Source: a virus. Taken from it: a DNA stretch of 64,000 bases. Below, piece by piece: positions 2,062 through 62,515 of the stretch (its first letter is position 1; every line of letters starts with the position of its first letter). The notes beneath the pieces were generated by a model, which was given only the letters and a program-made list of their open reading frames with translations, searched no databases and was not told where the DNA came from. Location: the IMG/VR virus record IMGVR_UViG_3300020152_000019; one strand, written 5' to 3'. The translations under genes and the position numbers were made by a program.

Positions 2062-2064
2062 ACT

Positions 2065-4781: not shown

Positions 4782-4783
4782 AC

Positions 4784-4816
4784 AAGACTACTGGAGGTTA
4801 TGCCTCCAGTAGTCTT
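4784..4816. terminator. bidirectional intrinsic terminator
   Basis: 14-bp hairpin AAGACTACTGGAGG/CCTCCAGTAGTCTT between convergent genes. Confidence 0.85.
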
Positions 4817-5052
4817 TAATATTTCACTTTACTATTTAATAACTGCGTTGAAGTATTAAACTCAGCAGGTTTATTAGTACTAGCGATATAGATGGCTTTT
4901 TCCGTAGTTAATTCATCAGCTTCTATTTCAGCTTGAAACTTTTTATAGAAACTATCCGAATCAACTTTATTCGGAAGGATTACTTTTTCATCAGTAATTT
5001 CCGTATTGATAATCACGTCTATGGGCTGTTTCGCTAAGAAATCGTTAAGCAT
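4816..5052 (-). CDS. hypothetical protein
   Basis: 78 aa, start overlaps the stop of the upstream minus-strand gene. Confidence 0.65.
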   Translation of the reverse strand: MLNDFLAKQPIDVIINTEITDEKVILPNKVDSDSFYKKFQAEIEADELTTEKAIYIASTNKPAEFNTSTQLLNSKVKY

Positions 5053-7058: not shown

Positions 7059-7059
7059 A

Positions 7060-7725
7060 TTAAATACTATTCGAAATATGCATCGCAGTGAGATAGGTCT
7101 TTAATGTCTTAGTGGATTCCACTCCACTAGAGTATTCCGACAATGTTTTCAGATTTGCATTACCATATCGTAAGAACATTGCGTTATATGCATTAAAGCC
7201 ATTTCTATCACCACCGCGATAGCGAATGAGTTCAGAGATAGTGTTATCCAATCCCATACCGATAAGAACTTGTAATTCCGGATACGAGATCTTCGCGCCT
7301 TTACTTTCACCGGTAGGTTGGAACGTAAGTTCGTCAATAACTTTGTTGTGCTCAGGAATACTGGTTTTCTTTAGCAGCGTTTGTGATTGACGACGATAAG
7401 GTAGATCCACAACTAGATACTTGATCGGTGTTTTATAATCAGGAGCATCCGTGTTATTGGTAAATACTAAATGCTCGAAGAATTCAAGACCGTATTTCTC
7501 AGCGATCTTCAGATTGTTTTCCACCGTAATCGAGTTAGCTTGGTACATCGGTTTAAAGATAACGAGATACTTCTTACCGTCTCGGATATCTTTCATGTAA
7601 GTGTCGAAGTCTTTGTCGGACATATTGGCAAAGATCTTCTTATATTGTTCGATATTATACCCAGTAGGTTCGATATCTTTTAAGAAATCCAAGATGAATT
7701 TCTCGGCAGCTTTTCGGTTAGCCAT
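7060..7725 (-). CDS. virion RNA polymerase beta subunit, C-terminal fragment (phiKZ gp149-like)
   Basis: RRQSQTLLKK...QPTGESKGAKISYPELQVL parallels the RNAP beta C-terminal QP.GG...GGQR.GEME region; start at MANRK. Confidence 0.8.
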   Translation of the reverse strand: MANRKAAEKFILDFLKDIEPTGYNIEQYKKIFANMSDKDFDTYMKDIRDGKKYLVIFKPMYQANSITVENNLKIAEKYGLEFFEHLVFTNNTDAPDYKTPIKYLVVDLPYRRQSQTLLKKTSIPEHNKVIDELTFQPTGESKGAKISYPELQVLIGMGLDNTISELIRYRGGDRNGFNAYNAMFLRYGNANLKTLSEYSSGVESTKTLKTYLTAMHISNSI

Positions 7726-7855
7726 GGTAAATCCTTCACAAATATCAGTCAAAGTATCGAAAGAAATATAGAAAATAACAGTTGAGTTATCACGGCTATC
7801 CCTTGTGACTGAGGATCATTCTGTGAGTTTCCCTTATAAGTAAAGGAGTTTAGAG

Positions 7856-10750
7856 ATGCGTATTAATATAGTAAATCAAGGTGGTTACGGTAACGGTGGG
7901 TTTGATATTGCGGGTGCAACCTTAACGGGTCCGCTTATTCTTGCCGCTGATCCTACCACTGGTCTTGAAGCTGCGACTAAACAGTATGTTGATAATGCGG
8001 TTAATTCGTTAAACGCTGGTCACATTACGACTGGTATTTTACCTGTAGGAAGACTGCCTGCGTTTACTGGTGACTTAACTAGTACAGCCGGAAGTAATAG
8101 TTTAACTTTATCTAACTCTGGTGTTATTGCCGGTACTTATACTAAAGTTACAGTCGATGTTAAAGGTAGAATTACCAATGGTTTAGCTTTAACTGTAGCG
8201 GACATTCCTGATCTTAGTTGGAATAAAATTACTACTGGCAAGCCAACTACGTTAGCCGGGTTTGGTATTACAGATGGTGTTAAAAATACCACTGATTCTG
8301 TTACTGGTTATTTGACGGCACACGCTGCACCTACCAACGCAACTCATGCAGCTACTAAAGCGTATGTTGATAGTTTGTCGTCTGGTTCTGGTTCTTTATC
8401 AGTCGGTGATACGATTCGTCGTCCTAGCAGTGTAACTCCCACGGGTTTCTTACGTTGTAACGGCGGGCAATTTAGTAAAACGACTTACCCTGCTTTATAT
8501 AGCGTTTTAAGTTCGATGTATAGTTCTTATGCTAATATCGATTATACTAGTTACGCTGCTATGGGTAATGGTCAACCTTGGCGTCAACAGTTCGGTTTTA
8601 AAACTTCTGATGTAACTGATATAACTGGTTGGAGTATACACGGAACATTACCAACAGAAGCTATGGATGACGGTCAAGTCATTGTCACTAAAAACCGTGT
8701 TTATATATTAGGTAAAAATGCTAAAGCTACTGTACTTACCGCTCCTATCAACGCCGACGGTACGTTAGGTACATGGACCACAGGTACAAATTTACCAGTA
8801 ATTCTTTTTAAATCTCAAGTTGTCGTCACTAAGAATCGTGTGTATTTATTAGGCGGTAAGACTAGCGCTACAATGCTTACTAGTACTGTATATACCGCTC
8901 CTATCAACACAGACGGCACCTTAGGTACCTGGTCAGCTAGCCCTAATAGTTTACCTGGTAATTTAGCGCAGAGTCAAGCAGTAGTTACTAAGAATAGAGT
9001 CTATTTATTAGGTGGTGGTGTTAGTACTAGTAATCGTACCGCTAATATTTATTACGCGCCTATTAATAGTGATGGTACGTTAGGAGTCTGGAGTAGTGAG
9101 GGTAGTTTACCAACTTCTTTAATGGACTCTCACGCTGTTGTCACTAAAAACCGCGTATATCTGTTAGGTGGAAATAATGGTTCAATTATATCTACTATCT
9201 ATACTGCACCCATTTTCGATGATGGAGTAATAGGTTCTTGGAGTGTTGCTAGTAGCAGTTTACCAGGTCCTTTAGCAGATTCTCAAGTTATAGTCACTAA
9301 GAATAGAGTGTTTACGTTAGGCGGGCGTGATGGTTCTGATAGACATTCTAATGTCTACACCGCTCCTATCAATGCCGACGGTACGTTAGGTAGTTGGACT
9401 ACTGGTACACCTTTACATTCAACATTAGCTAATTCACAAGCTATTGTTACTAAAAATCGTGTTTATTTATTAAGCGGATTGGATGCTAGTGGTCTAGGAT
9501 CAACTACTAATATTTATACTGCATTGTTACCTGGTAACGAATCTTTTAACGATTACTCTAATTTCTATAACGGTACCATTAATAAGTTTGACGGCTCTGA
9601 CATTTCTGGAACTATATTGTTAAAAGACGGATATAGCGATAGTTTAGATTATACTCAATCTGGTAACGGTCAGCCGTGGCGTCAACAATATCAAATAAAC
9701 ACCCAACAAAGTGGTGATATAACCAATTGGGCTTTTAGCGATTATCCCTTACCTGCGACTATTACTGAATCTCATTCCATTGTTACTAAGAATAGAATTT
9801 ACTTATTAGGCGGATCTATCAACAGTGCTTATAGCAGTACTGGTTATACTGCAACTATTAACGCTGATGGTACATTAAATTCATGGAACAGTATCTCGTT
9901 ACCAGCTTCATTTAGCTATAGTCAAGCAATAGTGACTAAAAATAGAGTGTATTTATTAGGTGGAAATGTTAATGGTAGTTATTCTACTTCAGTTTACACA
10001 GCACCGATCAATAGTGACGGTACGTTAGGCGAATGGACTACCGGAACATCATTACCATTAACTATAGTATTTTCTCATGCTTTAGTAACTAAAAATAGAG
10101 CCTACTTACTAGGCGGTGAAATAAATGGCGCTAACTCGTCCGCAGTTTATACTGCTCCTATTGACGCAAACGGCATGTTAGGTAGTTGGACTAACACTAA
10201 TAATAATTTACCAGCATTTGTTAAAAGATCTCAACTTGTAGTTACGAAGAATAGAGTATACCTCATAGGTGGTTTAGTAAATGGTTCTAACTCATCTAAC
10301 GTTTATACCGCACCTATTAACTCTGACGGCACATTAGGTGTATGGGCTACGGCAAGTAATTTACCTGTCTCTTTATATGGTTGCCAATCTATAGTTACTC
10401 AAAATAAAGTATATTTGTTAGGTGGGTATGCTAATGGTTCCTATAGCTCTACCGTATATACAGCCCCGATTAATGCCGATGGAACTTTAGGTAATTGGAC
10501 TACTGGAACATCGTTACCAGGAAGTACAATGCTATCTCAAGCTGTAGTTGTAAAGAATAAAATATATTTAATAGGCGGAAATAATGGTTCGAATCTTGCT
10601 ACTATACATGTTGCGCCTATTTTAGGGGGTTTGAATGATTATTCTCCTTACTATAATGGCACTATAATTCCTGTTGAATCTGGTAATTTTAAATTACCGG
10701 ATACTACGTTAACTGATCCTGTTGGCATCTATACTTTTATCAAATACTAA
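7856..10750 (+). CDS. tail fibre/receptor-binding protein with collar domain and two six-bladed Kelch-like propellers
   Basis: AATKQYVD fibre repeats, GFLRCNG...YPALY collar motif, 12 (V/I)TKNRVYLLGG-type repeats, C-terminal FKLPD...FIKY. Confidence 0.85.
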   Translation: MRINIVNQGGYGNGGFDIAGATLTGPLILAADPTTGLEAATKQYVDNAVNSLNAGHITTGILPVGRLPAFTGDLTSTAGSNSLTLSNSGVIAGTYTKVTVDVKGRITNGLALTVADIPDLSWNKITTGKPTTLAGFGITDGVKNTTDSVTGYLTAHAAPTNATHAATKAYVDSLSSGSGSLSVGDTIRRPSSVTPTGFLRCNGGQFSKTTYPALYSVLSSMYSSYANIDYTSYAAMGNGQPWRQQFGFKTSDVTDITGWSIHGTLPTEAMDDGQVIVTKNRVYILGKNAKATVLTAPINADGTLGTWTTGTNLPVILFKSQVVVTKNRVYLLGGKTSATMLTSTVYTAPINTDGTLGTWSASPNSLPGNLAQSQAVVTKNRVYLLGGGVSTSNRTANIYYAPINSDGTLGVWSSEGSLPTSLMDSHAVVTKNRVYLLGGNNGSIISTIYTAPIFDDGVIGSWSVASSSLPGPLADSQVIVTKNRVFTLGGRDGSDRHSNVYTAPINADGTLGSWTTGTPLHSTLANSQAIVTKNRVYLLSGLDASGLGSTTNIYTALLPGNESFNDYSNFYNGTINKFDGSDISGTILLKDGYSDSLDYTQSGNGQPWRQQYQINTQQSGDITNWAFSDYPLPATITESHSIVTKNRIYLLGGSINSAYSSTGYTATINADGTLNSWNSISLPASFSYSQAIVTKNRVYLLGGNVNGSYSTSVYTAPINSDGTLGEWTTGTSLPLTIVFSHALVTKNRAYLLGGEINGANSSAVYTAPIDANGMLGSWTNTNNNLPAFVKRSQLVVTKNRVYLIGGLVNGSNSSNVYTAPINSDGTLGVWATASNLPVSLYGCQSIVTQNKVYLLGGYANGSYSSTVYTAPINADGTLGNWTTGTSLPGSTMLSQAVVVKNKIYLIGGNNGSNLATIHVAPILGGLNDYSPYYNGTIIPVESGNFKLPDTTLTDPVGIYTFIKY

Positions 10751-10756
10751 AATAGC

Positions 10757-10788
10757 AAGACACTACCAGGAACTCCTGGTAGTGTCTT
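10757..10788. terminator. bidirectional intrinsic terminator
   Basis: 14-bp hairpin AAGACACTACCAGG/CCTGGTAGTGTCTT. Confidence 0.85.
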
Positions 10789-10798
10789 ATCTCTATCA

Positions 10799-11110
10799 TT
10801 ATTTAAAAAACTTATCTTCGTTCTCTTTAAGAAAAGGAAGAATTACAATCCGGATATCGTCTAACCAACCATTCACATCCGTCGCGATATTAAGTGCTAA
10901 CCTAATTTGACTCGGAACAATATGTTCGCTATCCACTAGAATACCGTAAAACAACATCGTCAACATCGTGCGTTGAAGTTGGTTGTTTTTATCGTATGCG
11001 TCAATATAATGTTGACTCGATTTAATAGCATGAACACTGTTAGGATTAAACTGTAATCTTTCCATTTCTGAAATGATTATAGTACATAGGTTTATATTAA
11101 TATCGCTCAT
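10799..11110 (-). CDS. hypothetical protein
   Basis: 103 aa with GAGG RBS. Confidence 0.7.
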   Translation of the reverse strand: MSDININLCTIIISEMERLQFNPNSVHAIKSSQHYIDAYDKNNQLQRTMLTMLFYGILVDSEHIVPSQIRLALNIATDVNGWLDDIRIVILPFLKENEDKFFK

Positions 11111-23795: not shown

Positions 23796-26678
23796 ATGAG
23801 ATTTAAGATTCTTAAACAGGGCGGATATAATAGCGGCGGTATATCTGAAACCGGTGGTAACATGTCCGGTCCGTTAGTGCTTGCTGCTAATCCTACCGAA
23901 AATTTACATGCCGCTTCGAAGTCCTATGTGGACACCGCGTTAGGTAATTTAAACGCAGCAAGTCTTACTAGTGGTCTTATTCCGGCTGAAAGATTACCGG
24001 CAATGACCGGCGACATTACCAATGTTGCTGGTAGTAATTCGTTTTCTTTATCTGATACTGGTATATCTCCTGGCACTTATGCTAAGGTTACTGTCAATGC
24101 AAAAGGTCGTATCACTAATGGTTACCCATTAGCCGAATCTGATATCCCTAATTTAGATTGGAGTAAGATCGTCACTGGTAAACCTACAACTGTCGCTGGT
24201 TATGGCATCACTGACGCTGTGCCTTCTACCGGTGGTACGTTAACTGGAGATTTAGTTGTTAATACCTCTCCCAGTAATCCATTACATATCGTCACTAAAG
24301 CTTATGTAGATTCTCTCGCGCAAAATAATACTAGTGGTATGAATGTGAATGTCGGTGATGTGGTGAGAAAAATCACTAACGTTACTCCTGCTGGTTTCTT
24401 GCGATGCAATGGTGGACAAGTCAGTAGAACTACTTATAGCGCTTTATTTAATGTTATAAAAGATCCATATACAGTTAAAGCTACAGTAGATTATACTAGC
24501 TATAGTGCAATGGGAGCTGGTACTCCTTGGAAACAACAATACGATATTAATTCTTTACAAAGCGGAGATATTACTGGCTGGACCACGAGTGGTTCGTTAG
24601 ATAGTAAAAATACTATTAACTCGTTAATAATTGTAACGAAAAATAAAGTCCATGCAATTGGCGGTAATGCTATGCCGGGTGGTTCGCTTCAAAATGTTGT
24701 TAATACAGCTACGATAAGGGACGACGGCACATTAACCGGATGGAGTGCTTCTACACCTTTCCCGTATACTATAAGTTATGGTCAAGCTGTAGTTACTAAA
24801 AATAGAGTCTATGTGTTTGGTGGTTTTATTAATGGATCTTACACTGCGACTGTATATACGGCTCTTATCAACGCTGACGGCACGTTAGGTGCTTGGACTA
24901 CCAGTGAAAATAGTTTACCAACACCTGTAGGTTTTTCTCAGATTGTCGTCACTAAAAATAGAGTATATAGTTTAGGCGGAGCTAATTCTAGCGGAAGTAT
25001 TACTGCTGTTTATACTGCTCCTATCAATTCTGATGGCACGTTAGGTGTATGGACTACTAGCTCTAATTCTTTACCTGTAGCGATAAGAAACTCTCAAGTT
25101 GTTGTTACTAAAAATAGAGCATACTTATTAGGCGGTGATGTAAATGGCACTAATTCTTCTGTCGTTTACACTGCGGTTATTAATAGTGACGGTACGTTAG
25201 GTGCTTGGTCTAACGCGAATAATAATTTACCAGGAGGTATCGCGTATTCACAAGCTATTGTCACTAAAAATAAAGTTTATATGTTGGGCGGACACAATGG
25301 TAGTCCCGTTTCTACGGTATACACTGCTCCTGTTAACGCTGATGGTACATTAGGAACATGGTCTACTAGTACCTCGTTACCTGCTGTTCTATCCAATTCC
25401 CAAGCTATTGTCACTAAAGGTCGGGTATACTTATTAGGTGGAAGTACTTCCGGAGAATCTAGTCCTACTATTTACACTGCTACTATAGCAGGAGGAACAG
25501 CAGATTATTCTATTTTCCATGATGGCACCATCAATAAGTTTGACGGCTCTGACATTTCTGGATCTACTATTTTATATGATACGTATGACGATTTTTCATT
25601 AAATACGCAACCTGGTTCTGGGCAACCTTGGAAAAATCAATATGAAATAAATTCATCTCACACTGGAGATACTTTATCTGCTTGGACTACGACTACTTCT
25701 TTACCAACAACGATAACTGAATCTAACGCTGTAGTAACTAAAAACAGAGTCTACTTATTAGGCGGACATGTAAGCAATAATCAATCTTCGGCTATTTATA
25801 CTGCTCCTATCAATGCCGATGGTACCTTAGGTACTTGGACTACAGCAGGTAATTTACCTATTAGTATATCTTCAACTCAAGCAATAGTCGCTAAAAACAG
25901 AGTTTACATTATAGGTCCTTCTACAATTTATTCTGCACCGATTAACACTGACGGTACTTTAGGTGTTTGGTCGTTAATTGGTAACGCACCAAGTAACGCT
26001 TACGATTCTCAAGTAGTAGTTATTAAAAATAGACTTTATATATTTAGCGGTCTTAATACCATTTCTTGTATCATTAATGATGATGGAACATTAAGTAATT
26101 GGACTACTGCTGCTACTTTTACTGATTCCATGTATTATGGACAAGCTATAGTTATAAAAAATAGAGTATATATTCTTGGAAGTGTGGATAGTTCTCTTTC
26201 TCTTCCAAGTAATAAAATTTATTACGCTCCTATTAATGCTGATGGTACTCTGGGCAATTGGACTTTATATAGTACGATGCCAACGAGATTATGCGAATTC
26301 CAGTTTTTTGTTAGTAAAAACACGTTATTTATCATTGGTGGATGTAGTCAATTTACTTATGGTTCTGCGAGAACTGATGTTTATTACTGCGCGATACAAA
26401 GCGATGGTAGTTTAGGAGCTTGGCTACCTGGTAATAGTTTACCAGTAGCAATGTTCGATCACCAATTGATCGCTACAAAAAATAGATTATATCTGTTAGG
26501 TGGCGCTGATACTGTTACGAATATTTCTACTGTTTACACTGCTACTATATCTGGAGGGTTAAATGATTATTCTCCTTACTATGATGGCACGATAACTGCT
26601 ATTGAACCTAATAACTTTAAATTGCCTGATTATAGCAATAAAGAACTTCCTGGTTCTTATAGTTACATCAAGTATTAA
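23796..26678 (+). CDS. second tail fibre paralog with collar domain and two Kelch-like propellers
   Basis: same architecture as 7856..10750; 12 blades; ends FKLPD...YIKY. Confidence 0.85.
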   Translation: MRFKILKQGGYNSGGISETGGNMSGPLVLAANPTENLHAASKSYVDTALGNLNAASLTSGLIPAERLPAMTGDITNVAGSNSFSLSDTGISPGTYAKVTVNAKGRITNGYPLAESDIPNLDWSKIVTGKPTTVAGYGITDAVPSTGGTLTGDLVVNTSPSNPLHIVTKAYVDSLAQNNTSGMNVNVGDVVRKITNVTPAGFLRCNGGQVSRTTYSALFNVIKDPYTVKATVDYTSYSAMGAGTPWKQQYDINSLQSGDITGWTTSGSLDSKNTINSLIIVTKNKVHAIGGNAMPGGSLQNVVNTATIRDDGTLTGWSASTPFPYTISYGQAVVTKNRVYVFGGFINGSYTATVYTALINADGTLGAWTTSENSLPTPVGFSQIVVTKNRVYSLGGANSSGSITAVYTAPINSDGTLGVWTTSSNSLPVAIRNSQVVVTKNRAYLLGGDVNGTNSSVVYTAVINSDGTLGAWSNANNNLPGGIAYSQAIVTKNKVYMLGGHNGSPVSTVYTAPVNADGTLGTWSTSTSLPAVLSNSQAIVTKGRVYLLGGSTSGESSPTIYTATIAGGTADYSIFHDGTINKFDGSDISGSTILYDTYDDFSLNTQPGSGQPWKNQYEINSSHTGDTLSAWTTTTSLPTTITESNAVVTKNRVYLLGGHVSNNQSSAIYTAPINADGTLGTWTTAGNLPISISSTQAIVAKNRVYIIGPSTIYSAPINTDGTLGVWSLIGNAPSNAYDSQVVVIKNRLYIFSGLNTISCIINDDGTLSNWTTAATFTDSMYYGQAIVIKNRVYILGSVDSSLSLPSNKIYYAPINADGTLGNWTLYSTMPTRLCEFQFFVSKNTLFIIGGCSQFTYGSARTDVYYCAIQSDGSLGAWLPGNSLPVAMFDHQLIATKNRLYLLGGADTVTNISTVYTATISGGLNDYSPYYDGTITAIEPNNFKLPDYSNKELPGSYSYIKY

Positions 26679-34949: not shown

Positions 34950-35035
34950 AATTCTAGGCTACTAATTAATACTATGGTCAAAAATGCTTGACTATACGTA
35001 TAGTGTTAACAAACTTTTTTACGAAGGAAAATAAA

Positions 35036-36244
35036 ATGAGTAAGCTTTTTGCTCTGGAAAATCTGGAAGAAAACGTCGACGGCGTGGAACTCGAAGCAGC
35101 ACCGGAAGTTGGTGAAGTTGCTGACGTTCAAGTGGAAGTCGAAGCCGAAACCGGTGACGCTGATACCGCTGTTGCTGCTATCGATGAAGGCATGGGCGCT
35201 GCTGATCAACTGGAACAAGTTGAAGAAGTCGTCGCTGACGCCGCTGAAGGCGAAGGCCTTGATCCGGTTGCTGCTGAAGCTATCAAGATCGCTGTTGAAG
35301 CTATCTGTGCTCGCGTTGGCGCCAACCCGAAAGCAATGTACTCGCTGTACGCTACCGAGAACTTCCAATCCGCTTCGTCCCGTAAGGCTAACACCAAGAT
35401 CGCTCTCGAAGGCGTTGGTGAATTCCTGAAAGACATGTGGAAGAAGATTAAGGCAGCTCTGCAACGCCTGTGGGAAAAGGTTCGTGCATTCTGGGACAAG
35501 CATGTGTCGTCCCTGGGCCGTATCAAGAAGGCGCTGGAGTCGATGAAGGCCAAGGTTAGCTCTTCCAGTGGCAAGCTGAAGGACAAGGCTTTCATTGAAG
35601 ACGCTCCGAGTGGTCTGTCTGACGCAGTCGGCGGTGGCGATATCAGTGCTAAGTCGTTCGATTCCTTCGTTGCTGCTCACAAAGCTCTGCTGAAGAGTGC
35701 TGACGACGTTACCGCTGCAACCGCAGACTTTAACGCTGCTGCTGCCGCTGGTGTTGCTTCTGACGAAGCCGCTATCACTGCTGCTATCGGTAAAGTCAAG
35801 GGCAAGGCTCCTGGCAAGTCCGGTACGCTGGTTGGTGGCGTCACCATCGAGTACAAGTTCTCGGAAGAAGGCGAAGGCGTTGTCAATCTGGAAGTCGAAC
35901 GTGAAAACGTTGACAAGAAGGATAAGGGCGGTGTTTCGCTGGCTGAAAAGAACGACGTTAAGTCGGCTCTGGACGGCGTGCTGGCGCTGATCAACGACAA
36001 CATCAAGGCTAAGGAAAAGCAGAACAAACTGCAAGAGTCCTTCAACAAGTTCTCGCTCGCAATCGAGAAGGCCATCAATGGTGCTGACGCTGCTAAGCAA
36101 AAAGGTCTGCGCGATGCAATGAAAGTTGCATACAAGATCAACGCTAAAGCTCCGACGATTCAGAACGAAGTTCTGGGCCTGAACATCAAGCTGGCTAAGG
36201 CTGTGCTCGGCTACGCTTCTCTGTGCGTTAAGAACTACAAGTAA
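35036..36244 (+). CDS. abundant head/inner-body paralog A
   Basis: MSKLFALE start, ATE and ALE-G motifs, GC-richer biased codons. Confidence 0.8.
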   Translation: MSKLFALENLEENVDGVELEAAPEVGEVADVQVEVEAETGDADTAVAAIDEGMGAADQLEQVEEVVADAAEGEGLDPVAAEAIKIAVEAICARVGANPKAMYSLYATENFQSASSRKANTKIALEGVGEFLKDMWKKIKAALQRLWEKVRAFWDKHVSSLGRIKKALESMKAKVSSSSGKLKDKAFIEDAPSGLSDAVGGGDISAKSFDSFVAAHKALLKSADDVTAATADFNAAAAAGVASDEAAITAAIGKVKGKAPGKSGTLVGGVTIEYKFSEEGEGVVNLEVERENVDKKDKGGVSLAEKNDVKSALDGVLALINDNIKAKEKQNKLQESFNKFSLAIEKAINGADAAKQKGLRDAMKVAYKINAKAPTIQNEVLGLNIKLAKAVLGYASLCVKNYK

Positions 36245-36367: not shown

Positions 36368-37612
36368 ATGAGTAAGCTTTTCGCTATGGAAAATGACGAT
36401 ACCGGTCTCGTTGACGCACAATTGGAAGTAATGCCTGAAGAAGGCGAAGCTGCTGACGTGCAAGTTGACGTTCAAGAAGAAGCTGGTGGAGTCGCTGAAC
36501 AAGAAGCAGCCATCGACGAAGGTATGGGTGCTGCTGATCAACTGGAACAAGTTGAAGAAGTGGTTGCTGACGCTGCTGAAGGTGAAGGTCTGGAGCCGGT
36601 TGCTGCTGAAGCTATCAAGATTGCTGTTGAAGCTATCTGTGCTCGTGTCGGTGCTAATCCGAAAGCTGTCTATAGCCTTTATGCAACGGAAAACTTCCAG
36701 TCTGCATCTTCGCGTAAAGCTAACACCAAGATCGCTTTGGAAGGCGTTGGTGAGTTCCTGAAGGATATGTGGAGAAAGATTAAAGCCGCTCTGCAAAGTC
36801 TGTGGGCTAAAGTGAAAGCTTTCTGGGCGAAGCATGTGTCGTCGCTCGGTCGTATCAAGAAGGCGCTGGAGTCGATGAAGTCGAAGGTTGGTTCTTCGTC
36901 TGGTAAGCTGAAAGACAAAGCCTATATCGAAGAAGCTCCGAGTGGTCTGAAAGATGCATTTGGCTTTAGTAAAGACGTGAGTGTTGATTCGATTAAGGCT
37001 GTTATTGCCTCTCATCGTAATTTCACTAAAGGTGCCGATGATATCGCTAAGCATATTCAAGCGATGAATAACGTAGCTGATCATCTTCCTGACACTAGCA
37101 ATAAAGATTTTAGTAACATTCTGAGTGCTATTCTCAAGGATACTAATAAGACTGTTTCTTTAGGTAGTAAAGACGCTCCTCTGGTGGGTGGCGGCTATAT
37201 TACTTATAAGCTTGAAAGCGATAAAGCTGAAGGCGAATTCACCGTTGAAGTCGAACGTGAAAACGTTGAACGTGAATCGAAGATCGGTGTTAGTCTGTCG
37301 GATAAGGCTGGCGTACAAAGTGTTCTGCAAGATACGATCACTATCATTAACGACACGATTCGTCGTAAAGAAAAGATCGAAAAAGATAACGAAGCAACCA
37401 ATAAGCTGTTCGTTGCTATGGAAAAGCGTATCAATGAAATTGCTACTAATGGTACTCCGGAAGCAGTGAAGGCCATGCGCAAGATCATGAAGATTGCATA
37501 TAAGGCTAACGCTAAGTCGCCGATGATTCAGACTGAAGAAATTGGTCTGAATGTGAAGCTCGGTAAGGCTGTGCTCGGCTATGCTGCTCTGTGCATGAAG
37601 AACTACAAGTAA
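36368..37612 (+). CDS. head/inner-body paralog B
   Basis: N-terminal half nearly identical to paralog A; same C-terminal KAVLGY..LC.KNYK. Confidence 0.8.
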   Translation: MSKLFAMENDDTGLVDAQLEVMPEEGEAADVQVDVQEEAGGVAEQEAAIDEGMGAADQLEQVEEVVADAAEGEGLEPVAAEAIKIAVEAICARVGANPKAVYSLYATENFQSASSRKANTKIALEGVGEFLKDMWRKIKAALQSLWAKVKAFWAKHVSSLGRIKKALESMKSKVGSSSGKLKDKAYIEEAPSGLKDAFGFSKDVSVDSIKAVIASHRNFTKGADDIAKHIQAMNNVADHLPDTSNKDFSNILSAILKDTNKTVSLGSKDAPLVGGGYITYKLESDKAEGEFTVEVERENVERESKIGVSLSDKAGVQSVLQDTITIINDTIRRKEKIEKDNEATNKLFVAMEKRINEIATNGTPEAVKAMRKIMKIAYKANAKSPMIQTEEIGLNVKLGKAVLGYAALCMKNYK

Positions 37613-54800: not shown

Positions 54801-55445
54801 ATGAATAAAAAGAAAGTTCTTTTAGCTTGGTCGGGTGGATTAGATTCGACATATTTAATTCAATACTATCTACAAGCAGGTTATTCTGTTGATGTTGTAA
54901 ATTGTAGTTTTCAGAATTCTTCTCAAACTCAAATGAAACGAGAAGATAAAGCCATTAAAAAAATGTTGAAGGGTTACTTTAAAGATAAAGATGTGAAGCT
55001 GTTAGGGAAGTCTACTATAACCTTTACAGGATATTCTTTTAGTAAACTGTTTTTAGGTCAAGTTCCAACTTGGGTTTATAACCTAATCAATTATTTAAAC
55101 TCCGAGCACACTGAAGTGGCGGTCGGATATGTAATGAACGATGATGCTATTTCATTCTTAGATGATATTCGTAAACTCTGGAATAGTTATGCTGGTTTAG
55201 TAAAAGAAACACTACCACCCTTGGTGTTTCCTCTTATTAAATATACGAAAACGTTTATCTATGGAGATTTACATCCAGAGTTAAAAAAACATATCACTTG
55301 GTGTGAAAGCTTTGGACCGGCAGATCTTTGTGGTACTTGTCATTCTTGTAGACGCATGATTGATCTAGGAATACAAACACCACCTATGATTCAGATAGAA
55401 GAGCCTATGAAACCACAATCTATTAAGAAAACAAGAAAGAAGTAA
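54801..55445 (+). CDS. queC: QueC-family PP-loop ATPase
   Basis: LAWSGGLDST PP-loop; TWC...CGTCHSC zinc site. Confidence 0.75.
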   Translation: MNKKKVLLAWSGGLDSTYLIQYYLQAGYSVDVVNCSFQNSSQTQMKREDKAIKKMLKGYFKDKDVKLLGKSTITFTGYSFSKLFLGQVPTWVYNLINYLNSEHTEVAVGYVMNDDAISFLDDIRKLWNSYAGLVKETLPPLVFPLIKYTKTFIYGDLHPELKKHITWCESFGPADLCGTCHSCRRMIDLGIQTPPMIQIEEPMKPQSIKKTRKK

Positions 55446-55531
55446 ATAACAGACAAGAGAGGATAAACCTCTCTTGTCTTTTTTTATTGTTGGCAATATC
55501 TTCTGATCGTATTTTACTAAGGGAGAATATA

Positions 55532-55804
55532 ATGGCTAAATATATTGTTGTTAAGCACGCTGGGGACAGTGCATGGGAATATTATTTTGTTTCTGACCCT
55601 AAAGAGTTCGATTGCCATATCAGCGTTTCCGCATTCTATACTCCTACCGGTAATGAGATTTGCAATCTTTATTATACCGAAGAACAACATGATCTTGCGC
55701 TACAACACTGCGCGAAGATGAATGAAGTTAATCCTTCTGGACATTATCGTGTATGCCGTGTCTCGGAAGACAGTTTAAAAGAAGTATTAGAACAGAAGGA
55801 ATAA
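55532..55804 (+). CDS. hypothetical protein
   Basis: GGGAG RBS before MAKYIVV. Confidence 0.75.
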   Translation: MAKYIVVKHAGDSAWEYYFVSDPKEFDCHISVSAFYTPTGNEICNLYYTEEQHDLALQHCAKMNEVNPSGHYRVCRVSEDSLKEVLEQKE

Positions 55805-55806
55805 CC

Positions 55807-56139
55807 ATGTTAGATTACGTAACCCAAATAGTAGTTTACTTAGTAATGGTCAGTGTCGCGGCTGAACGCTTGACAGATATTTTTAAGCGTGTATTTGTAG
55901 AAACATTCAAAATACCTACCTTTAATGGAGCGTTATATCAAGCTTTTGCTTGTATATTCGGAGCCCTTATAGCTCGTATAAGTCCGCCAGATATTCCTGT
56001 TATCCATTTAAATGAATATGTTCTAGTCATTATTATCGGATTAGCTGTTTCCGGTGGTAGTGGTGCTTGGAACAGTATCTTAGATATTCTTAAGCAATTA
56101 TCTGCTAGTAAGAAAATAGAAAACAATATTAAAGGATAA
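55807..56139 (+). CDS. holin-like multi-TM membrane protein
   Basis: three hydrophobic segments, GLAVSGGS...ILDIL, basic C-terminus. Confidence 0.5.
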   Translation: MLDYVTQIVVYLVMVSVAAERLTDIFKRVFVETFKIPTFNGALYQAFACIFGALIARISPPDIPVIHLNEYVLVIIIGLAVSGGSGAWNSILDILKQLSASKKIENNIKG

Positions 56140-56142
56140 ATC

Positions 56143-56463
56143 ATGACTTTATATCATGATTCTCTTTTTAATCCAAGACAACCGACAGCTATTTTTAGTA
56201 ACGCTAGCTTATCTCCTACCAATAGTTCTGCATCAACGGTTGGTAACATTAAGATGAAGTTAGCAATTATAGATTGCTTAACCAACGGTACAAATACATA
56301 TACAATATCTAGTTCAGTTAATACAAATGTGCTTAAACAAGAACTAAAGAAATTACAGAAAATACTTCAGAAGCATCCAAAACGTACTGATATTAAATTA
56401 AGAATATTAGAAATTCAAAAACAAATTAAAGAGGAACATAAAAATGCAAAACAACGAGTGTAA
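56143..56463 (+). CDS. hypothetical protein
   Basis: 106 aa, AAGGA RBS. Confidence 0.6.
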   Translation: MTLYHDSLFNPRQPTAIFSNASLSPTNSSASTVGNIKMKLAIIDCLTNGTNTYTISSSVNTNVLKQELKKLQKILQKHPKRTDIKLRILEIQKQIKEEHKNAKQRV

Positions 56464-56635
56464 GACATGTAAGAAATGTAATAGTAAAGGTGACGGTATC
56501 GGTGATACTCTTTTAGGTTGCATGATTGCCGTCATTCTTCTTTTCGTTTTATTTAATGGTGAACCGAATATTGCGGAAAGCTTAAGAGTAGTTGCACAAC
56601 GCTGGGCTGAAACATTTGGATATTGTAATCGTTAG
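56444..56635 (+). CDS. small membrane protein with CxxCxxC
   Basis: CKTCKKC plus a hydrophobic stretch; GAGGA RBS. Confidence 0.65.
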   Translation: MQNNECKTCKKCNSKGDGIGDTLLGCMIAVILLFVLFNGEPNIAESLRVVAQRWAETFGYCNR

Positions 56636-56672
56636 TAGAAGAAGTTAATACTAAACTATACTGGAGTCTAAC

Positions 56673-56906
56673 ATGTCTATTGATTATAAAAAACTAGAAA
56701 CAATGGAAGAATGTGAAAGAGATGCTTACTTAAAAACTCTTCCTAAAGAAAATCTATTAAAGATTCTAGAACATTATACTGAAAAGCTGTTGACTTGCAC
56801 ACAACGGATGACTGAGGTGGCTTATGAAAGATTGGATCAACAACTTCCTACTCATTTGCCGTCTAAAGTTGAAACTAACAATTTACTTAATAGACTAATG
56901 TCTTAA
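56673..56906 (+). CDS. hypothetical protein
   Basis: 77 aa, GGAG RBS. Confidence 0.7.
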   Translation: MSIDYKKLETMEECERDAYLKTLPKENLLKILEHYTEKLLTCTQRMTEVAYERLDQQLPTHLPSKVETNNLLNRLMS

Positions 56907-56943
56907 GAGGTTTTACAATTAAATATAAATAGGAGAAGGGGTT

Positions 56944-58485
56944 ATGTTTAAAAATGTGAAAATTAAAACACGATTAATATTTGTATTGATGTTTCTATCT
57001 TTACAATTAATCGTAGGTGCGGTAATTGGACTTGCTGGAATTTATGCCGGTAACGAAGAGATGAAGTCTTTGTATGAAGATCGTCTTGTAGCGCTTGCTG
57101 ATTTAGACCAGTTGATTCGTCTTCTTAACATGAATCAACTTGATCTTGCAAAATCAGTGACTGATACTAATCCTGATGAAATAAAATCTATTCTTGCTTC
57201 AATTGAATCACGACGAGACATTTTCGAGAAAACGTGGAATGCTTACATGGCTACCACTTTAACTGCAGACGAAAAGCTCTTCGCAGACCAGTTGACTATC
57301 GAACGTCAAGTTTTCGTCAATGAAGGATTAAATCCTACCATTGAAGCAGTTCGTAAAGGTGACACTGCTGCTGCGATCGAACTCATCCACGGTAAAATGG
57401 AAAAGACCTTCGTACCGGTGCGTGAGTCTATCAATAAACTAATTAAATTGCAAACCGATGTCGCTCTTGAAAGTTATAACGCATCGCAAAGACAATACGT
57501 TTTAATTCGTAATTTTTGTATTTTCGGTGTAGCCGTTGGTTTGTTAATGGCTTTTGGTTCTTGTGTATGGTTAATTAAATCCATTACCACGCCGATAAAT
57601 AAAGCTATTGATATTGCTAAAGGCGTTGCGAATGGTGATCTCACACAACAAATCACTGTTGACTCCACCAATGAAATGGGTGAGTTAATGAAAGCTCTAT
57701 CTGATATGAATAACGGTTTGCAACAAATCGTACTTCAAGTCAGAGGAGGCACCCAGCTTATCAATACCGCGTCTAATGAAATTGCCAGTGGTAACGCAGA
57801 TCTTTCTTCTCGCACTGAACAACAAGCAGCTTCATTAGAAGAGACAGCATCGTCGCTTGAAGAACTTACTTCTACCGTTCATCAAAACGCAGATAACGCT
57901 AAACAAGCGAGTTCTATGTCATTAACAGCCGCAACAGTTGTTAGTGAAGGTGGACAAGCAGTTGAGCGGTTAATTAATACAATGTCTGATATTAGAACGA
58001 GTTCTAACAAGATTACTGAAATCATTGGTGTGATTGATGGTATCGCTTTTCAAACCAATATCTTAGCTTTAAACGCAGCAGTTGAAGCTGCTCGCGCCGG
58101 AGAACAAGGTAGAGGTTTTGCGGTAGTTGCAACAGAAGTCAGAAGTTTAGCGCAACGTTCAGCCGCAGCAGCAAAAGAAATTAAAGAACTCATTAATCGT
58201 TCTGTAATGAATGTGGCTACCGGAAGTGATCAAGTTGAACATGTAGGTACAAAGATTAAAGACGCAGTAGCAAGCATTCAACGAGTCAATGATATCATGA
58301 CTGAAATTGCAGCAGCTAGTGCAGAGCAATCGACTGGCATTGATCAAATCAATACTGCTGTTTCACAAATGGATCAGGTAACTCAACAAAACGCAGCTTT
58401 AGTTGAACAAGCAGCAGCAGCGGCGGAAAGTATGAAAGAACAAGCTAATCAGTTAGCTCAAATCGTAAGTACTTTCAAAGTTTGA
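56944..58485 (+). CDS. methyl-accepting chemotaxis protein (full length)
   Basis: TM1, four-helix sensor, TM2, HAMP, signalling hairpin IAFQTNILALNAAVEAARAGEQGRGFAVVATEVRSLA, methylation helices. Confidence 0.97.
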   Translation: MFKNVKIKTRLIFVLMFLSLQLIVGAVIGLAGIYAGNEEMKSLYEDRLVALADLDQLIRLLNMNQLDLAKSVTDTNPDEIKSILASIESRRDIFEKTWNAYMATTLTADEKLFADQLTIERQVFVNEGLNPTIEAVRKGDTAAAIELIHGKMEKTFVPVRESINKLIKLQTDVALESYNASQRQYVLIRNFCIFGVAVGLLMAFGSCVWLIKSITTPINKAIDIAKGVANGDLTQQITVDSTNEMGELMKALSDMNNGLQQIVLQVRGGTQLINTASNEIASGNADLSSRTEQQAASLEETASSLEELTSTVHQNADNAKQASSMSLTAATVVSEGGQAVERLINTMSDIRTSSNKITEIIGVIDGIAFQTNILALNAAVEAARAGEQGRGFAVVATEVRSLAQRSAAAAKEIKELINRSVMNVATGSDQVEHVGTKIKDAVASIQRVNDIMTEIAAASAEQSTGIDQINTAVSQMDQVTQQNAALVEQAAAAAESMKEQANQLAQIVSTFKV

Positions 58486-58500
58486 TAAATCTATATTCTA

Positions 58501-58531
58501 AGAAGAGGTGTCTGATGATACCTCTTTTTTT
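58501..58531 (+). terminator. intrinsic terminator
   Basis: AAGAGGTGTC/GATACCTCTT plus T tract. Confidence 0.75.
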
Positions 58532-58586
58532 ATTATTTATTTTTTACAAACTGACATAACCCTATGAGAAAGAAAAAGGATATATC

Positions 58587-58967
58587 ATGTCTACTACTGA
58601 TGTCGAAGTTATTAATGAAAAAGTGATTTTATATAAAGGTGTGAGGTTTGTAGCAGATCCTGATATCGCTAATAGAATTAGTATCTTTCTGGTAAGAGAT
58701 AACCATTCCACTATTAAAGTGTACGGTACTACCCCAGAAGCTATTTTGACTGAAGTAAATCGAATTCTTAAAATCTTCTCCGATGCAGATAGTGGCGTTA
58801 TCTTTTTAATGCATGATCGAAAAGAAATTAAGAGATATAGCTTTACTATAGATGAAGAACAAGCTAAGAAACAAAATAGCTGTTATAGAGATAAGTATCT
58901 TGGTGATATACTTAAATTAGAAGACGTTAAAGTTCTTCTGCCGAAAAATATTGATCCTAAAAATTAA
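58587..58967 (+). CDS. hypothetical protein
   Basis: 126 aa with RBS. Confidence 0.75.
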   Translation: MSTTDVEVINEKVILYKGVRFVADPDIANRISIFLVRDNHSTIKVYGTTPEAILTEVNRILKIFSDADSGVIFLMHDRKEIKRYSFTIDEEQAKKQNSCYRDKYLGDILKLEDVKVLLPKNIDPKN

Positions 58968-59022
58968 AAACACAATAAGACGACTCAGATGGTTTTTCCA
59001 TCTGAGTTCGGATCTTTTTCAA

Positions 59023-59033
59023 TTACACATATA
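59023..59033 (+). promoter_or_regulatory. TTACACATATA promoter-like motif
   Basis: one-mismatch motif copy. Confidence 0.55.
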
Positions 59034-59063
59034 ATAACTGATCTTTCCGGTTAAGGAGTTTAA

Positions 59064-59570
59064 ATGTTTGGTTTTACAGGTGCAGGACCTTTCGTTATCA
59101 TTCTAAATAAGAAAGATAACATTAAGTTTATTTCTATCCCTTTCTTGTTTACATATAGTAACACAGAGAAAGATGTTAGCGATTATATAGGAGATGAAAG
59201 TTCTATCATTATTCATCTTGGTTTTTTAAGTGGCTTACTGCGATTCAAAAAGAAGAGCTACAACTATGATATTCCTGAAACGTTGTTCGGGAGAGTAGAA
59301 CACGAACTGGTTGAAACAGGTAAGACTACAGTTGTTACTACCAATCTTGGTGAATTCGTCGTAGTAGAAGGTCAAGCGATATTTAAAAGGTCTAGAAGGA
59401 AAAAGGTTCTTGAAAGAACTTCTGTCTATATCTTTAAGAAAGCTCCGATCAATATAAGGAAAAACTTAAATTACGTTCAAGCTTTAAGTCCTGAACATGC
59501 GGTAGTACGAATTCAAGAAGTGGTGAATATCGTAAATCAATTACAGAAAGATTTCGATTTAAAGGAATAG
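59064..59570 (+). CDS. hypothetical protein
   Basis: 168 aa, AAGGAG RBS. Confidence 0.75.
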   Translation: MFGFTGAGPFVIILNKKDNIKFISIPFLFTYSNTEKDVSDYIGDESSIIIHLGFLSGLLRFKKKSYNYDIPETLFGRVEHELVETGKTTVVTTNLGEFVVVEGQAIFKRSRRKKVLERTSVYIFKKAPINIRKNLNYVQALSPEHAVVRIQEVVNIVNQLQKDFDLKE

Positions 59571-59592
59571 TTTATATTTAAAGGAGAGCAAC

Positions 59593-59967
59593 ATGAGATC
59601 AATGAAACTTCTTAAAGAAGCAGCTCATCTTCTTGAAACACCTGGTGATTTTACTGACGGAGAAAAGAGTAGCACTATCGCAGAGATAGGATCGTTCTTA
59701 TCTGAGCAACAAAAGAAAGCTGAAAGTAATACAGAAGACGGTATTCGGGTAAGCACCGACGGCGAGAACTGGGAGTATACTGACAACGTTCAAATTGTAA
59801 GTCACCTCACTCGTGCTGGACAAAAAGAAGTTCGAGAGTTTACTATGAAGACCAGAGACGGTGAATTAGACATCGATTTCAAAACAACGATTAACAGTGA
59901 GTCCTTAAATAACAAAGTCTCCTTTGATATCGAATCTTTAAACAACTTCACGATCAAGCATTTCTAA
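59593..59967 (+). CDS. hypothetical protein
   Basis: 124 aa, AAGGAG RBS. Confidence 0.75.
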   Translation: MRSMKLLKEAAHLLETPGDFTDGEKSSTIAEIGSFLSEQQKKAESNTEDGIRVSTDGENWEYTDNVQIVSHLTRAGQKEVREFTMKTRDGELDIDFKTTINSESLNNKVSFDIESLNNFTIKHF

Positions 59968-59979
59968 TAGGAGAAACAC

Positions 59980-60132
59980 ATGGCACACAATGCAGGTAAA
60001 GGTAGTGGTCGTCGTCCGAATCAAGTTCCTGATGAAGTAGTTGCTAACAACTGGGAACAAATCTTCGGTAAGAAGAAGCCGAAGCACGAGCAACCGCAAG
60101 AACAACAATCGTCCGACGTTAAGAAAGACTAA
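59980..60132 (+). CDS. small phage protein (GKGS.RRP...NW..IFGK type)
   Basis: 50-aa ORF below the ORF-track cutoff, AGGAG RBS. Confidence 0.75.
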   Translation: MAHNAGKGSGRRPNQVPDEVVANNWEQIFGKKKPKHEQPQEQQSSDVKKD

Positions 60133-60134
60133 AA

Positions 60135-60458
60135 ATGATTTATACGTTCGCTAATCGCACTGTAGGGCTTGTTGGGCAATTTGAGACGCCAATAGAACTT
60201 ATGCAATTGGCGATCTTTTATCTGGGCGGTAGATGTTTTGTTGTCTATAATAAAATAATCATTCCTGATGTGATTGTTATCGGGAAGCACACATCCAGTA
60301 AAGCCATCGAAGCTATCGAAAAACATTTCATGAATGGACAAATGTCAAGCATTCCTGTTTATGAAGCTAAGATTAACGACCACATGCCAGACGATAAAAT
60401 GTTTAGTGATATCCTCGATCGTGTAAAAGAAGAACTTCCTTGGTGTATTGGTTATTGA
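60135..60458 (+). CDS. possible stand-alone BRCT-like domain
   Basis: VGLVGQF...YLGG...DVIVIG...KAIEA...IPVY pattern. Confidence 0.45.
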   Translation: MIYTFANRTVGLVGQFETPIELMQLAIFYLGGRCFVVYNKIIIPDVIVIGKHTSSKAIEAIEKHFMNGQMSSIPVYEAKINDHMPDDKMFSDILDRVKEELPWCIGY

Positions 60459-60519
60459 AAAAATACTAGAAATCCATATATAGTGAACAGAACGCAACCT
60501 GCATTTGAAGTAAACACAA

Positions 60520-61345: not shown

Positions 61346-61990
61346 AAAGGTTCGGTAGTGAACCTCCCCTCTAAGCTTCGGCTTAGAGACAAGCCTCCTT
61401 TGGCAACTACCAAAAAGGCTAGGCAGGTAGCCTCCTCTCTGAATTTAGGTTTAGAGCCAAGTCCACTTGGACACCTGCCAGATTCACGTCGTGAGACGTT
61501 TATACTTAGACACCACCGTTGAAAGACGGTAAAGATCCAAAGCTTGCGTGCAGGGGCGGCCTGCTTCAAGAGCCATTTGAAATGCCGTAAAACCACCTGT
61601 AACTGGACTAAGTCCTAAGAGGGTGTAACTAATCCGGTAAGGCAACGGTAGTACTTGAATTAAGAATTAAAACGTGGATCGGTGAATCTTCTCAAAGTCG
61701 GTATGACTAAAAAAGCGATGAGGCTAGAGGTCTCTTAAGTTGCATTAGCTCGGTGTTATCGTCGAGCTAATTGATGTCAAAATCGAGCCAAGCTTAATGA
61801 TTCTATTAGATAACTTTCCTACCGGTGTGTTATTTGATAGTTTCTATTATGAAGGTGTAAGACTAATGGGAAGTACTGTTACTACTAAACTGACAGGAAG
61901 GGGAAGTTGGTAACAGTAAAAGGTCTAACCCATGAGCATAAATGAATCCTCCTGAGAAAAGTGTTCTGTTTATGTTTGTGGTTCTATTCT
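61346..61990 (+). ncRNA. free-standing group-I-derived structured RNA with a multi-hairpin 5' domain
   Basis: 61681-61930 is paralogous to the intron core with compensatory P3/P4 changes; 5' region rich in UUCG/GNRA hairpins; no exons found. Confidence 0.65.
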
Positions 61991-62045: not shown

Positions 62046-62182
62046 TTGAGTGCGGTTGAACTGTATTTACGATTGTTCTTAGCTTTGCATTCGTGAGAGT
62101 GTAAGGATATTGTAAATGCGGTTGTTATTACCTCCGCATTCGAGAAGAATCAAGAGAGTAACATCTCTTGTATTATTGTCGT

Positions 62183-62515
62183 ATGGAGAGGGTAAAACTT
62201 CTCTGAGACTTTCAAGGTGAAAGGCTTCTGGACGCGGGTTCGATTCCCGCCTCGTCCAATAAGTACATTCTAACGAGTGTGGTTATTGGGCGAGTACTGG
62301 TTTCGACAGGGGTTAAGTAGGTGAGAAGGAACGACACGTCCATGAGCGCGGACGTTAATCTGGGTTCAATAAAGTAAATGCTGCTAATGATAGCCATTTC
62401 CGCGCTGCTGCCTAAAAACAGCTAACGGATGAGGTCACTAATCTAGTTCGCTAGGTTAGGTCGTCTACTCTCCCGATAATGACGGAGTCCTTATACCCCA
62501 AACAGGTAGACGACA
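62183..62515 (+). ncRNA. ssrA: circularly permuted two-piece tmRNA (acceptor piece ends 62258; coding piece starts 62288)
   Basis: T-arm GCGGG-TTCGATT-CCCGC plus CTCGTCC-A precedes GGGCGAG-TACTGGTTTCGAC; G3-U70 pair; tag ORF 62380-62415 (AANDSHFRAAA*); outer ends approximate. Confidence 0.9.

Follow-up and report, generated by a model that had tools for sequence, protein, structure and literature searches.

We analysed a 64,000-nucleotide stretch of the IMG/VR virus record IMGVR_UViG_3300020152_000019 (hereafter the window), which contains a gene for a methyl-accepting chemotaxis protein (MCP, or chemoreceptor). The gene, the parts of its product and the signals around it are listed in Table 1. 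When the 513-residue product was compared with Pfam, TarH and 4HB_MCP_1 matched amino acids (aa) 1-185, HAMP matched the segment given in the table, and MCPsignal (PF00015) matched aa 325-480 with 176.6 bits, as compared to a cut-off of 34.6. In PHROGs, a family of unknown function (phrog_8572) was matched over the full length with an E value of 2.5e-132. In NCBIfam, the equivalogs for enteric Tcp, Tsr, Tar and Tap were matched only below their thresholds, which places the phage MCP outside these orthologue groups.

The AlphaFold model of the sensor (aa 30-195, built with 30 homologues) is a four-helix bundle with a mean pLDDT of 93.3. A Foldseek search with this model gave the ligand-binding domain (LBD) of Vc1313 as the best match (TM-score 0.88-0.92), followed by Tar, Tsr, MCP2201 and PcaY, all at about 10% identity, while the sensor alone had no match among the PDB sequences. 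At such low identity, the solved sensors support the fold and do not allow a ligand to be deduced. Residues 213-513 were aligned with residues 224-517 of Escherichia coli Tsr without any gap (E = 9e-98). Since there is no gap between HAMP and the end of the protein, we regard it as a 36-heptad (36H) receptor. In the hairpin tip, 34 of 34 residues are the same as in Tsr.

The residues equivalent to methylation sites are Q293, E300, E307 and Q489, within the pairs EQ 292-293, EE 299-300, EE 306-307 and EQ 488-489, which align with Tsr Q297, E304, Q311 and E493; the established site numbering of Tsr was transferred to the phage protein by the offset of +4. The same alignment gives a glycine hinge at G336/G337/G435. 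All the methylation positions and the hinge lie in invariant or near-invariant alignment columns. Every family feature that could be tested is present, and on this evidence the ORF (open reading frame) encodes an intact class-I transmembrane MCP. The full-length receptor proposed by the initial annotation, with two transmembrane helices, a four-helix sensor, HAMP, tip and methylation helices, is therefore recovered by Pfam, hydropathy, the AlphaFold2 (AF2) model and the Tsr alignment.

Table 1. Coordinates (window numbering) of the MCP gene, of the parts of its product and of the surrounding signals and ORFs.
Feature	Position	Strand	Basis or remark
MCP gene	56944..58485	+	single ORF, 513 aa plus stop; Pfam TarH/4HB_MCP_1, HAMP, MCPsignal
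First transmembrane helix (TM1)	56968..57048 (aa ~9-35)	+	Kyte-Doolittle, 19-aa windows >1.6
Periplasmic four-helix-bundle sensor	57049..57507 (aa ~36-188)	+	Pfam TarH, 4HB_MCP_1; AF2 model; Foldseek
Second transmembrane helix (TM2)	57508..57579 (aa ~189-212)	+	hydropathy (segment at aa ~188-212)
HAMP	57568..57708 (aa 209-255)	+	PF00672, E 2.1e-10
36-heptad signalling domain	57730..58482 (aa 263-513)	+	gapless Tsr alignment, offset +4
Hairpin tip, CheA/CheW and trimer-contact region	58027..58134 (aa 362-397)	+	identity with Tsr 366-401
Ribosome-binding site AGGAGAAGGGG	56931..56941	+	AGGAG at 56931-56935; stretch ends 2 nt before ATG
Intrinsic terminator right after the MCP stop	58500..58536	+	13-pair hairpin, then T-run (58500-58529)
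Upstream intrinsic terminator, opening the MCP unit	55451-55479	+	12-pair hairpin plus T7
Five small co-oriented ORFs (90, 110, 106, 63, 77 aa)	55532..56906	+	between upstream terminator and MCP
Promoter-like motif	38439, 44751, 45402, 46455, 48573, 50032, 51796, 53018	+	eight intergenic sites; weaker variants at 59024, 60521

Residence in a phiKZ-like phage and bacterial origin of the gene

The genome that carries the MCP gene is a record of 234,290 bp, assembled as a metagenomic MEGAHIT contig (ENA metagenome assembly ERZ27252484). Four internal head proteins of the phiKZ_IP family (PF12699) were found by Pfam in the window, which also codes for a tail tube protein, head-tail joining domains, a family-B DNA polymerase and a UvsX-like recombinase, and contains virion PHROG families typical of phiKZ-like phages (phrog_3248, phrog_3196 and phrog_4585). 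A virion protein of 958 aa matched 290 phage records, nearly all of them jumbo phages of Pseudomonas, Erwinia, Ralstonia and similar hosts, and its best match, at 57%, was 'Bacillus phage vB_BspM_AgentSmith' (MW749006.1). Judged from this gene content, the surrounding DNA is that of a phiKZ-like jumbo phage of more than 200 kb, with a phiKZ-type virion and internal head proteins. AgentSmith is the closest cultured relative, and its Gram-positive host label comes as a surprise for a phage of the phiKZ type, given the betaproteobacterial markers in the relative described here. No Pfam family of Che, flagellar or pilus proteins was found among the 77 ORFs of the 64-kb window of this 234-kb genome, in agreement with the initial observation that no che genes accompany the receptor.

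The composition of the gene is that of the phage. Its GC content at third codon positions (GC3) is 0.275, as compared to 0.345 ± 0.07 in 35 phage ORFs and 0.80-0.81 in the two closest bacterial genes, and its overall GC content is 39%, as compared to 62% in the close bacterial homologues inspected. The relative synonymous codon usage (RSCU) of the MCP gene correlates with that of 14 large phage genes (r = 0.84) and not with that of the bacterial homologue (r = -0.31). The A/T-ending codons shared with the phage neighbours, noticed in the initial annotation, are thus borne out by both measures. Related phage contigs contain homologues of genes on either flank of the MCP gene, and a second contig holds an identical protein with the same neighbours. 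The possibility that the assembly is chimeric, or that contaminating bacterial DNA became attached to phage sequence, had to be considered, because the genome is a metagenomic MEGAHIT contig and the MCP gene lies 3.2 kb from the end of the record. However, GC content and GC3 are far from the 62% and 0.80 found in every close bacterial homologue inspected, codon usage fits the phage, both flanks have relatives in phage contigs and the second contig repeats the arrangement, so that we consider this explanation extremely improbable. By these sequence measures, the MCP gene resides in the phage, and they exclude that GC-rich bacterial DNA was joined in a chimera.

The window MCP was a singleton when 5.8 billion protein clusters were searched, and the next 119 matches were full-length MCPs with 53-60% identity. 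Those that carry names come from Noviherbaspirillum, Herbaspirillum, Massilia and Glaciimonas, together with members of the Oxalobacteraceae or Burkholderiaceae without a genus name. Three homologue contexts that were inspected are chromosomal, and the two closest (L014 and L016) have a GC content of 62%. A scan of species genomes for relatives of the MCP gave almost only Burkholderiales. In a tree of 70 rows, the window MCP falls inside a clade of 35 Oxalobacteraceae rows with an SH-aLRT support of 98, and a careful tree of 39 rows retains the same group (UFBoot/SH-aLRT 98/97). These trees and homologues show that the donor of the gene was an Oxalobacteraceae bacterium of the Noviherbaspirillum/Massilia group, that is, of soil betaproteobacteria. 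A betaproteobacterial origin had already been suspected from the style of the sequence and can now be narrowed to this family. No known ligand was found for the Oxalobacteraceae homologues.

The phage transfer-messenger RNA (tmRNA, positions 62154-62463) matched the Rfam model beta_tmRNA with 99 bits and also matched tmRNA_permuted. When five bacterial genomes were compared, beta_tmRNA scored 129 bits in Massilia eurypsychrophila (G004:C28:1814-2182), 74 bits, below the 84-bit cut-off, in Noviherbaspirillum aerium (G003:C1:32777-33058), and at most 30 bits in the Janthinobacterium, Herbaspirillum and Comamonas genomes. This independent marker agrees with the trees and, within the five genomes compared, points to the host, or at least to the donors of genes. 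The beta_tmRNA regions of Massilia and Noviherbaspirillum were considered as possible related prophages and rejected, since they consist of GC-rich chromosomal DNA and have no sequence in common with the window.

The distribution of the gene among related phages was examined in a 43-kb contig (L114, GC 47.5%; positions 1-11060) and in the pair L115/L116 (GC 44%; L115:1-6898). These are two of the contigs with a homologue of the QueC-like gene described below; both are collinear with the window from 53 to 60.5 kb and continue with an RNA island like that of the window. Both carry counterparts of the genes that flank the MCP gene upstream (56143-56463) and downstream (58587-58967). Within this collinear region, the order of the SNase and QueC-like genes is swapped in the L114/L115 relatives with respect to the window, and the lineage of the window is far more AT-rich than its relatives (GC 36% vs. 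44-47.5%). Positions 55000-60500 were without a match when 50,697 phage records were searched by megablast. The simplest reading of the syntenic comparison is a single gain in the lineage of the window after its split from these relatives, within a region of small-gene shuffling, and the gene is best described, on this sequence evidence, as a host-derived accessory (moron-type) gain and not as an ancestral core gene. The initial annotation had argued for long residence rather than contamination. The phage-like codons and the turnover of synonymous sites agree with this, while the absence of the gene from relatives means that it is not an old core gene.

Other phage-borne candidates were also considered. 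A tblastn search of the phage records with the window MCP gave matches of at most 52% identity, which were mostly bacterial contigs or fragments filed as phage, and the genuine phage matches (A4 and the Pseudomonas Y-series) were at most 34% identical. Scans of IMG/VR with the window MCP and with a second AT-shifted MCP, described below (P0074), gave partial matches of up to 64% identity, several of them at contig ends, that look like provirus flanks and were set aside.

Constraint on the protein and the missing tether

With respect to its closest homologues, the MCP gene has a nonsynonymous divergence (dN) of 0.36, and the synonymous divergence (dS) is undefined by the Nei-Gojobori method because the synonymous sites are saturated. 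Where the amino acid is identical, the same codon is used in 26% of cases between phage and bacterial genes, as compared to 54-63% between bacterial homologues at a like protein distance. For the analysis of the protein, columns were counted as strongly conserved when 118 bacterial homologues agreed in at least 95% of cases. The window MCP retains 159 of the 169 such columns (94%), including all 14 in HAMP, 58 of 59 in aa 346-420 and 10 of 11 in the sensor. Seven of the ten changes are conservative (L>I, G>A, L>M, A>V, V>L, V>I and D>E), and A434>V likewise exchanges one aliphatic residue for another, so that only L430Q and T437K, both beside the glycine hinge, are clearly non-conservative. 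A neutral ORF would not stay open and conserved through the saturation of synonymous sites. For this reason, the substitution pattern is taken to show that the protein has been under purifying selection while its codons were fully recoded to the AT-rich usage of the phage.

Divergence is not evenly distributed along the protein. Identity between the phage and the bacterial proteins, as compared to that among the bacterial proteins, is 84% vs. 89% in the tip, 42% vs. 47% in the sensor, 51% vs. 65% in HAMP, 62% vs. 79% in the first methylation helix and 58% vs. 69% in the second. This pattern fits a relaxed or redirected constraint on the region that governs adaptation and sets the signalling bias, following the loss of the tether described here.

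The protein ends with ...FKV, directly behind the signalling domain, whereas an xWxxF motif after a linker of about 50 aa is present at the end of 101 of the 119 nearest homologues. In the bacterial homologues of the alignment, this linker of about 50 residues is rich in Ala and Pro and is followed by a final xWEEF. By its sequence, the window MCP is without the linker and the xWxxF tether for CheR and CheB, in accordance with the missing NWETF-type tether of the initial annotation, and hence it falls outside the tether-bearing (high-abundance) subclass. The tail loss is evidently derived, because xWxxF ends most of the homologues. Tail-less homologues also occur on chromosomes (P0023 and P0033).

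Another AT-shifted MCP of the same clade, P0074, which is 54% identical to the window MCP, was observed at positions 450-2069 of L100, a contig of 2727 bp from Logan (SRR31798024). The contig has a GC content of 46%, and the gene has a GC content of 47% and a GC3 of 0.49. P0074 likewise ends right after the signalling domain, and would also be of 513 aa if it starts at MFKN. It is placed between small ORFs that are paralogues of each other, five in number, and ...KYL is the C-terminus of four of them; the flanking ORFs had no match in PHROGs, in the phage records or in the loci compared. The contig possibly derives from another phage or from a mobile element. In the 39-row tree, the window MCP and P0074 pair as sisters (90/90). 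The rare residues in common with the window MCP lend no support to this sisterhood, as P0074 has 7 of them, as compared to 9 and 8 in chromosomal homologues, and the pairing may be due to long-branch attraction. Two further proteins that share rare residues with the window MCP, P0104 and P0106, were rejected as phage relatives, both being found in ordinary chromosomal contexts.

Proposed role, expression signals and neighbouring genes

We propose that the tether-less receptor joins the arrays of the host as an extra ligand input and biases the swimming of the infected cell, a reading to which we give about an even chance of being correct. During infection, the protein would be inserted into the inner membrane and would form homodimers. 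Entry into the host arrays is to be expected because the tip is identical to that of Tsr, and through this tip the homodimers would form mixed trimers of dimers with host 36H receptors in the polar arrays and couple to the host CheA and CheW. Trg and Tap, which are without NWETF, adapt only with the help of tether-bearing neighbours in mixed arrays. The phage MCP may act in the same manner, as a low-abundance input of the Trg/Tap type that is methylated by CheR and CheB tethered on neighbouring host receptors; the Oxalobacteraceae homologues would be tethered neighbours of the kind required. The encoded Q-E-E-Q would mimic a half-methylated state, so that the receptor could be kinase-active and ligand-responsive before any modification. 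The sensor probably keeps the ligand class of the bacterial orthologues, because it retains 10 of the 11 strongly conserved family columns. In this way, a ligand of the phage's choosing would bias how the infected cell swims.

Several observations weigh against this proposal. The excess divergence sits in HAMP and in the methylation helices, while tip and sensor are near the bacterial background, and L430Q and T437K, as the clearly non-conservative changes, could be a sign that signalling is altered and not normal. In the trees, the window MCP has a terminal branch 3-5 times as long as its sisters have. No MCP is found between the flanking genes in L114 and L115/L116, and the MCPsignal domain is absent from the complete AgentSmith genome and from two IMG/VR relatives. 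This absence from syntenic relatives and from AgentSmith indicates that the MCP is dispensable for this kind of phage. Moreover, the promoter-like motif of the phage, described below, is absent both before the MCP gene and before the start of its unit.

Some of these points would fit a receptor that jams signalling, which is the main rival explanation. An excess of a tether-less, non-adapting receptor would flood or dilute the arrays and lock the output of CheA and the rotation bias, and ligand sensing would then be irrelevant. Possible benefits are the arrest or dispersal of infected cells, the saving of energy, and the blocking of superinfecting phages that depend on the flagellum. Phages do interfere with host motility organelles for superinfection exclusion. 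The loss of a CheR/CheB tether that most homologues have would be in line with such a role, as would a divergence concentrated in HAMP and the methylation helices and not in the tip, and the position of L430Q and T437K close by the glycine hinge. The literature searches gave no paper on interference by means of an MCP. Against jamming, a sensor conserved towards the orthologues almost as well as the orthologues are among themselves, with nearly all its conserved columns kept, would be needless for a pure jammer; moreover, the four methylation pairs are all retained, and the chromosomal homologues P0023 and P0033 are tail-less too. We consider jamming unlikely, though it has the best claim among the alternatives to the proposed ligand input.

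It is conceivable that the protein has no part in chemotaxis and is used as a scaffold, either to anchor something in the membrane at the cell pole or to sense a signal for a non-flagellar pathway. Nothing speaks directly for such a use, and the five neighbouring orphan ORFs show no recognisable partner genes. Tip, hinge and methylation sites, which serve the interplay with CheA, CheW, CheR and CheB, are instead the best-conserved parts of the protein, and this makes a non-chemotactic use very improbable.

The expression signals bear on another explanation, in which the gene is a tolerated passenger, acquired by illegitimate recombination, that is of no benefit to the phage or is expressed at a negligible level. 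The MCP gene has a good ribosome-binding site and its own terminator (Table 1), as had been noticed at the outset, and TAGGAGA-type sites are present upstream of other phage genes as well. The passenger explanation would account for the lack of the gene in the nearest relatives, for its being a singleton among 5.8 billion proteins and for the lack of a clear promoter. However, a neutral ORF of 1.5 kb would not stay open while GC3 went from 0.80 to 0.27, nor would it be expected to keep 94% of the strongly conserved columns with mostly conservative changes, or to be equipped with both a ribosome-binding site and a terminator. A mere passenger is therefore improbable in our opinion, though less so than a scaffold.

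If the receptor works as an extra ligand input, its benefit for the phage may be that a virulent jumbo phage steers the infected cell up or down a ligand gradient, for example towards dense or well-fed hosts, and the independent captures of MCP genes by unrelated jumbo phages, such as the window phage and the coliphage A4 lineage, would then be a recurrent strategy for manipulating behaviour. This extension is offered tentatively, as one that is more likely wrong than right.

As to the transcription of the gene, the promoter-like motif of the phage consists of TTGAAt, nine variable bases and gaTTACATA running into TATAAT (TTGAAt...TACATATAT). It precedes small genes as well as the tRNA region, and resembles a sigma-70 promoter with a fixed 16-nt spacer. 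The motif probably marks one temporal class of phage transcripts. Generic sigma-70 matches were no commoner than in shuffled sequences (29 vs. 26.4), while terminator-like sites in the region number 11, as compared to 4.1 ± 2.2 in shuffles. The five small ORFs upstream of the MCP gene are possibly co-transcribed with it in a 3-kb unit bounded by the two terminators. The searches of Pfam and PHROGs gave no match for these five ORFs nor for the three small ORFs downstream. The upstream ORFs of 110 and 106 aa have homologues in related phage contigs, and a tblastn search of the phages with the downstream ORF of 126 aa gave no match.

A QueC-like gene lies 1.5 kb upstream of the MCP gene, at 54801-55442 (phrog_1550; Pfam QueC, E = 1.7e-5). 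It has homologues with 58-67% identity on other metagenomic, phage-like contigs, and the family hints at a 7-deazaguanine modification of DNA in this group of phages. Two paralogues of about 960 aa (7856-10750 and 23796-26678) match tail-fibre PHROGs, and Kelch-repeat and phage tail collar domains were found by Pfam in two ORFs of the window. These ORFs are probably the same two proteins, which would then be candidate receptor-binding proteins. Two of the PF12699 genes (34988-36244 and 36368-37612) have GC contents of 52% and 45%, respectively, as compared to a phage mean of about 36%. The end of the ENA record corresponds to window position 61687, and the window continues to 64000 without any repeat at that spot; presumably, it spans the ends of the record through circularisation. 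Features that lie across 61687, such as the RNA at 61346-61990, hinge on that join.

Comparison with known systems

That viruses can manipulate the behaviour of their hosts is well established for animals, whereas for bacteria, to our knowledge, the matter is almost unexplored beyond blocked pili or flagella. If a lytic phage retains a functional chemoreceptor under selection but has no kinase or adaptor, it would need the array of its host and would offer a tractable case of navigation rewired by a virus. The case is readable, since the donor clade is identified, the codons are rewritten, the tether is gone and relatives lack the gene at the same site. It may also be regarded as a natural experiment on what a receptor needs, or does not need, inside a foreign array. 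In addition, the Oxalobacteraceae ancestry is a clue to the host of an uncultured jumbo phage.

E. coli Tsr and Tar (PDB 6S1K, 8C5V, 3ZX6 and 1QU7), which are 36H transmembrane MCPs, have the same 4HB (four-helix-bundle) sensor fold as the phage MCP and, in the case of Tsr, match without gap from HAMP to the C-terminus and residue by residue in the tip. Compared with Tsr, the phage sensor is without detectable sequence similarity, the NWETF tail is absent, and the methylation sites read Q-E-E-Q instead of Q-E-Q-E. E. coli Trg and Tap, which are likewise full receptors without the CheR/CheB tether, are the working model for the phage MCP by functional analogy, although they are encoded by chromosomal genes and have other sensors. 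The LBD of Vibrio cholerae Vc1313 (PDB 8BSA/8BSB, with D-Arg or D-Lys bound) superposes on the sensor model with a root mean square deviation of 1.5 Å over 158 residues (TM-score 0.88-0.92), but at a sequence identity of only 10%.

The Oxalobacteraceae MCPs with 4HB-HAMP-36H organisation from Noviherbaspirillum, Herbaspirillum sp. HC18 and Massilia (for example P0005, P0003 and P0007) have the same full-length architecture and 59-60% identity. These are chromosomal, with a GC3 of 0.80, and mostly end with the linker and xWExF, whereas the phage copy has a GC3 of 0.275, is tail-less and sits on a branch 3-5 times longer.

Among phages of betaproteobacteria, the Nitrosospira and Nitrosomonas (ammonia-oxidiser) phages, including a jumbo phage, are listed with MCP, CheR and CheY (bioRxiv 10.64898/2026.05.02.722434); these genes are annotation-table entries only, in genomes rich in other cellular genes. 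No functional study of a phage-encoded MCP was found in the literature. Escherichia phage A4 (Asteriusvirus, 355 kb) offers a parallel, as its MCPsignal protein A4_379, annotated in GenBank as a methyl-accepting chemotaxis protein, belongs to a virulent jumbo phage, has the phage GC content (32-35%) and is surrounded by hypothetical phage genes. It differs in being of 470 aa, in having no Pfam match to TarH/4HB or HAMP, and in being only 34% identical over the signalling domain. In the phage records, A4_379 was found in A4 alone, although its protein also had matches in three records of V. mediterranei phages. Since the phage family and the host differ between A4 and the window phage, the two MCPs are independent captures. 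Phage-borne MCPs had thus already been annotated, and what is new here is that the MCP belongs to a phiKZ-like phage, that the donor clade of the gene can be identified and that the tether has been cleanly lost.

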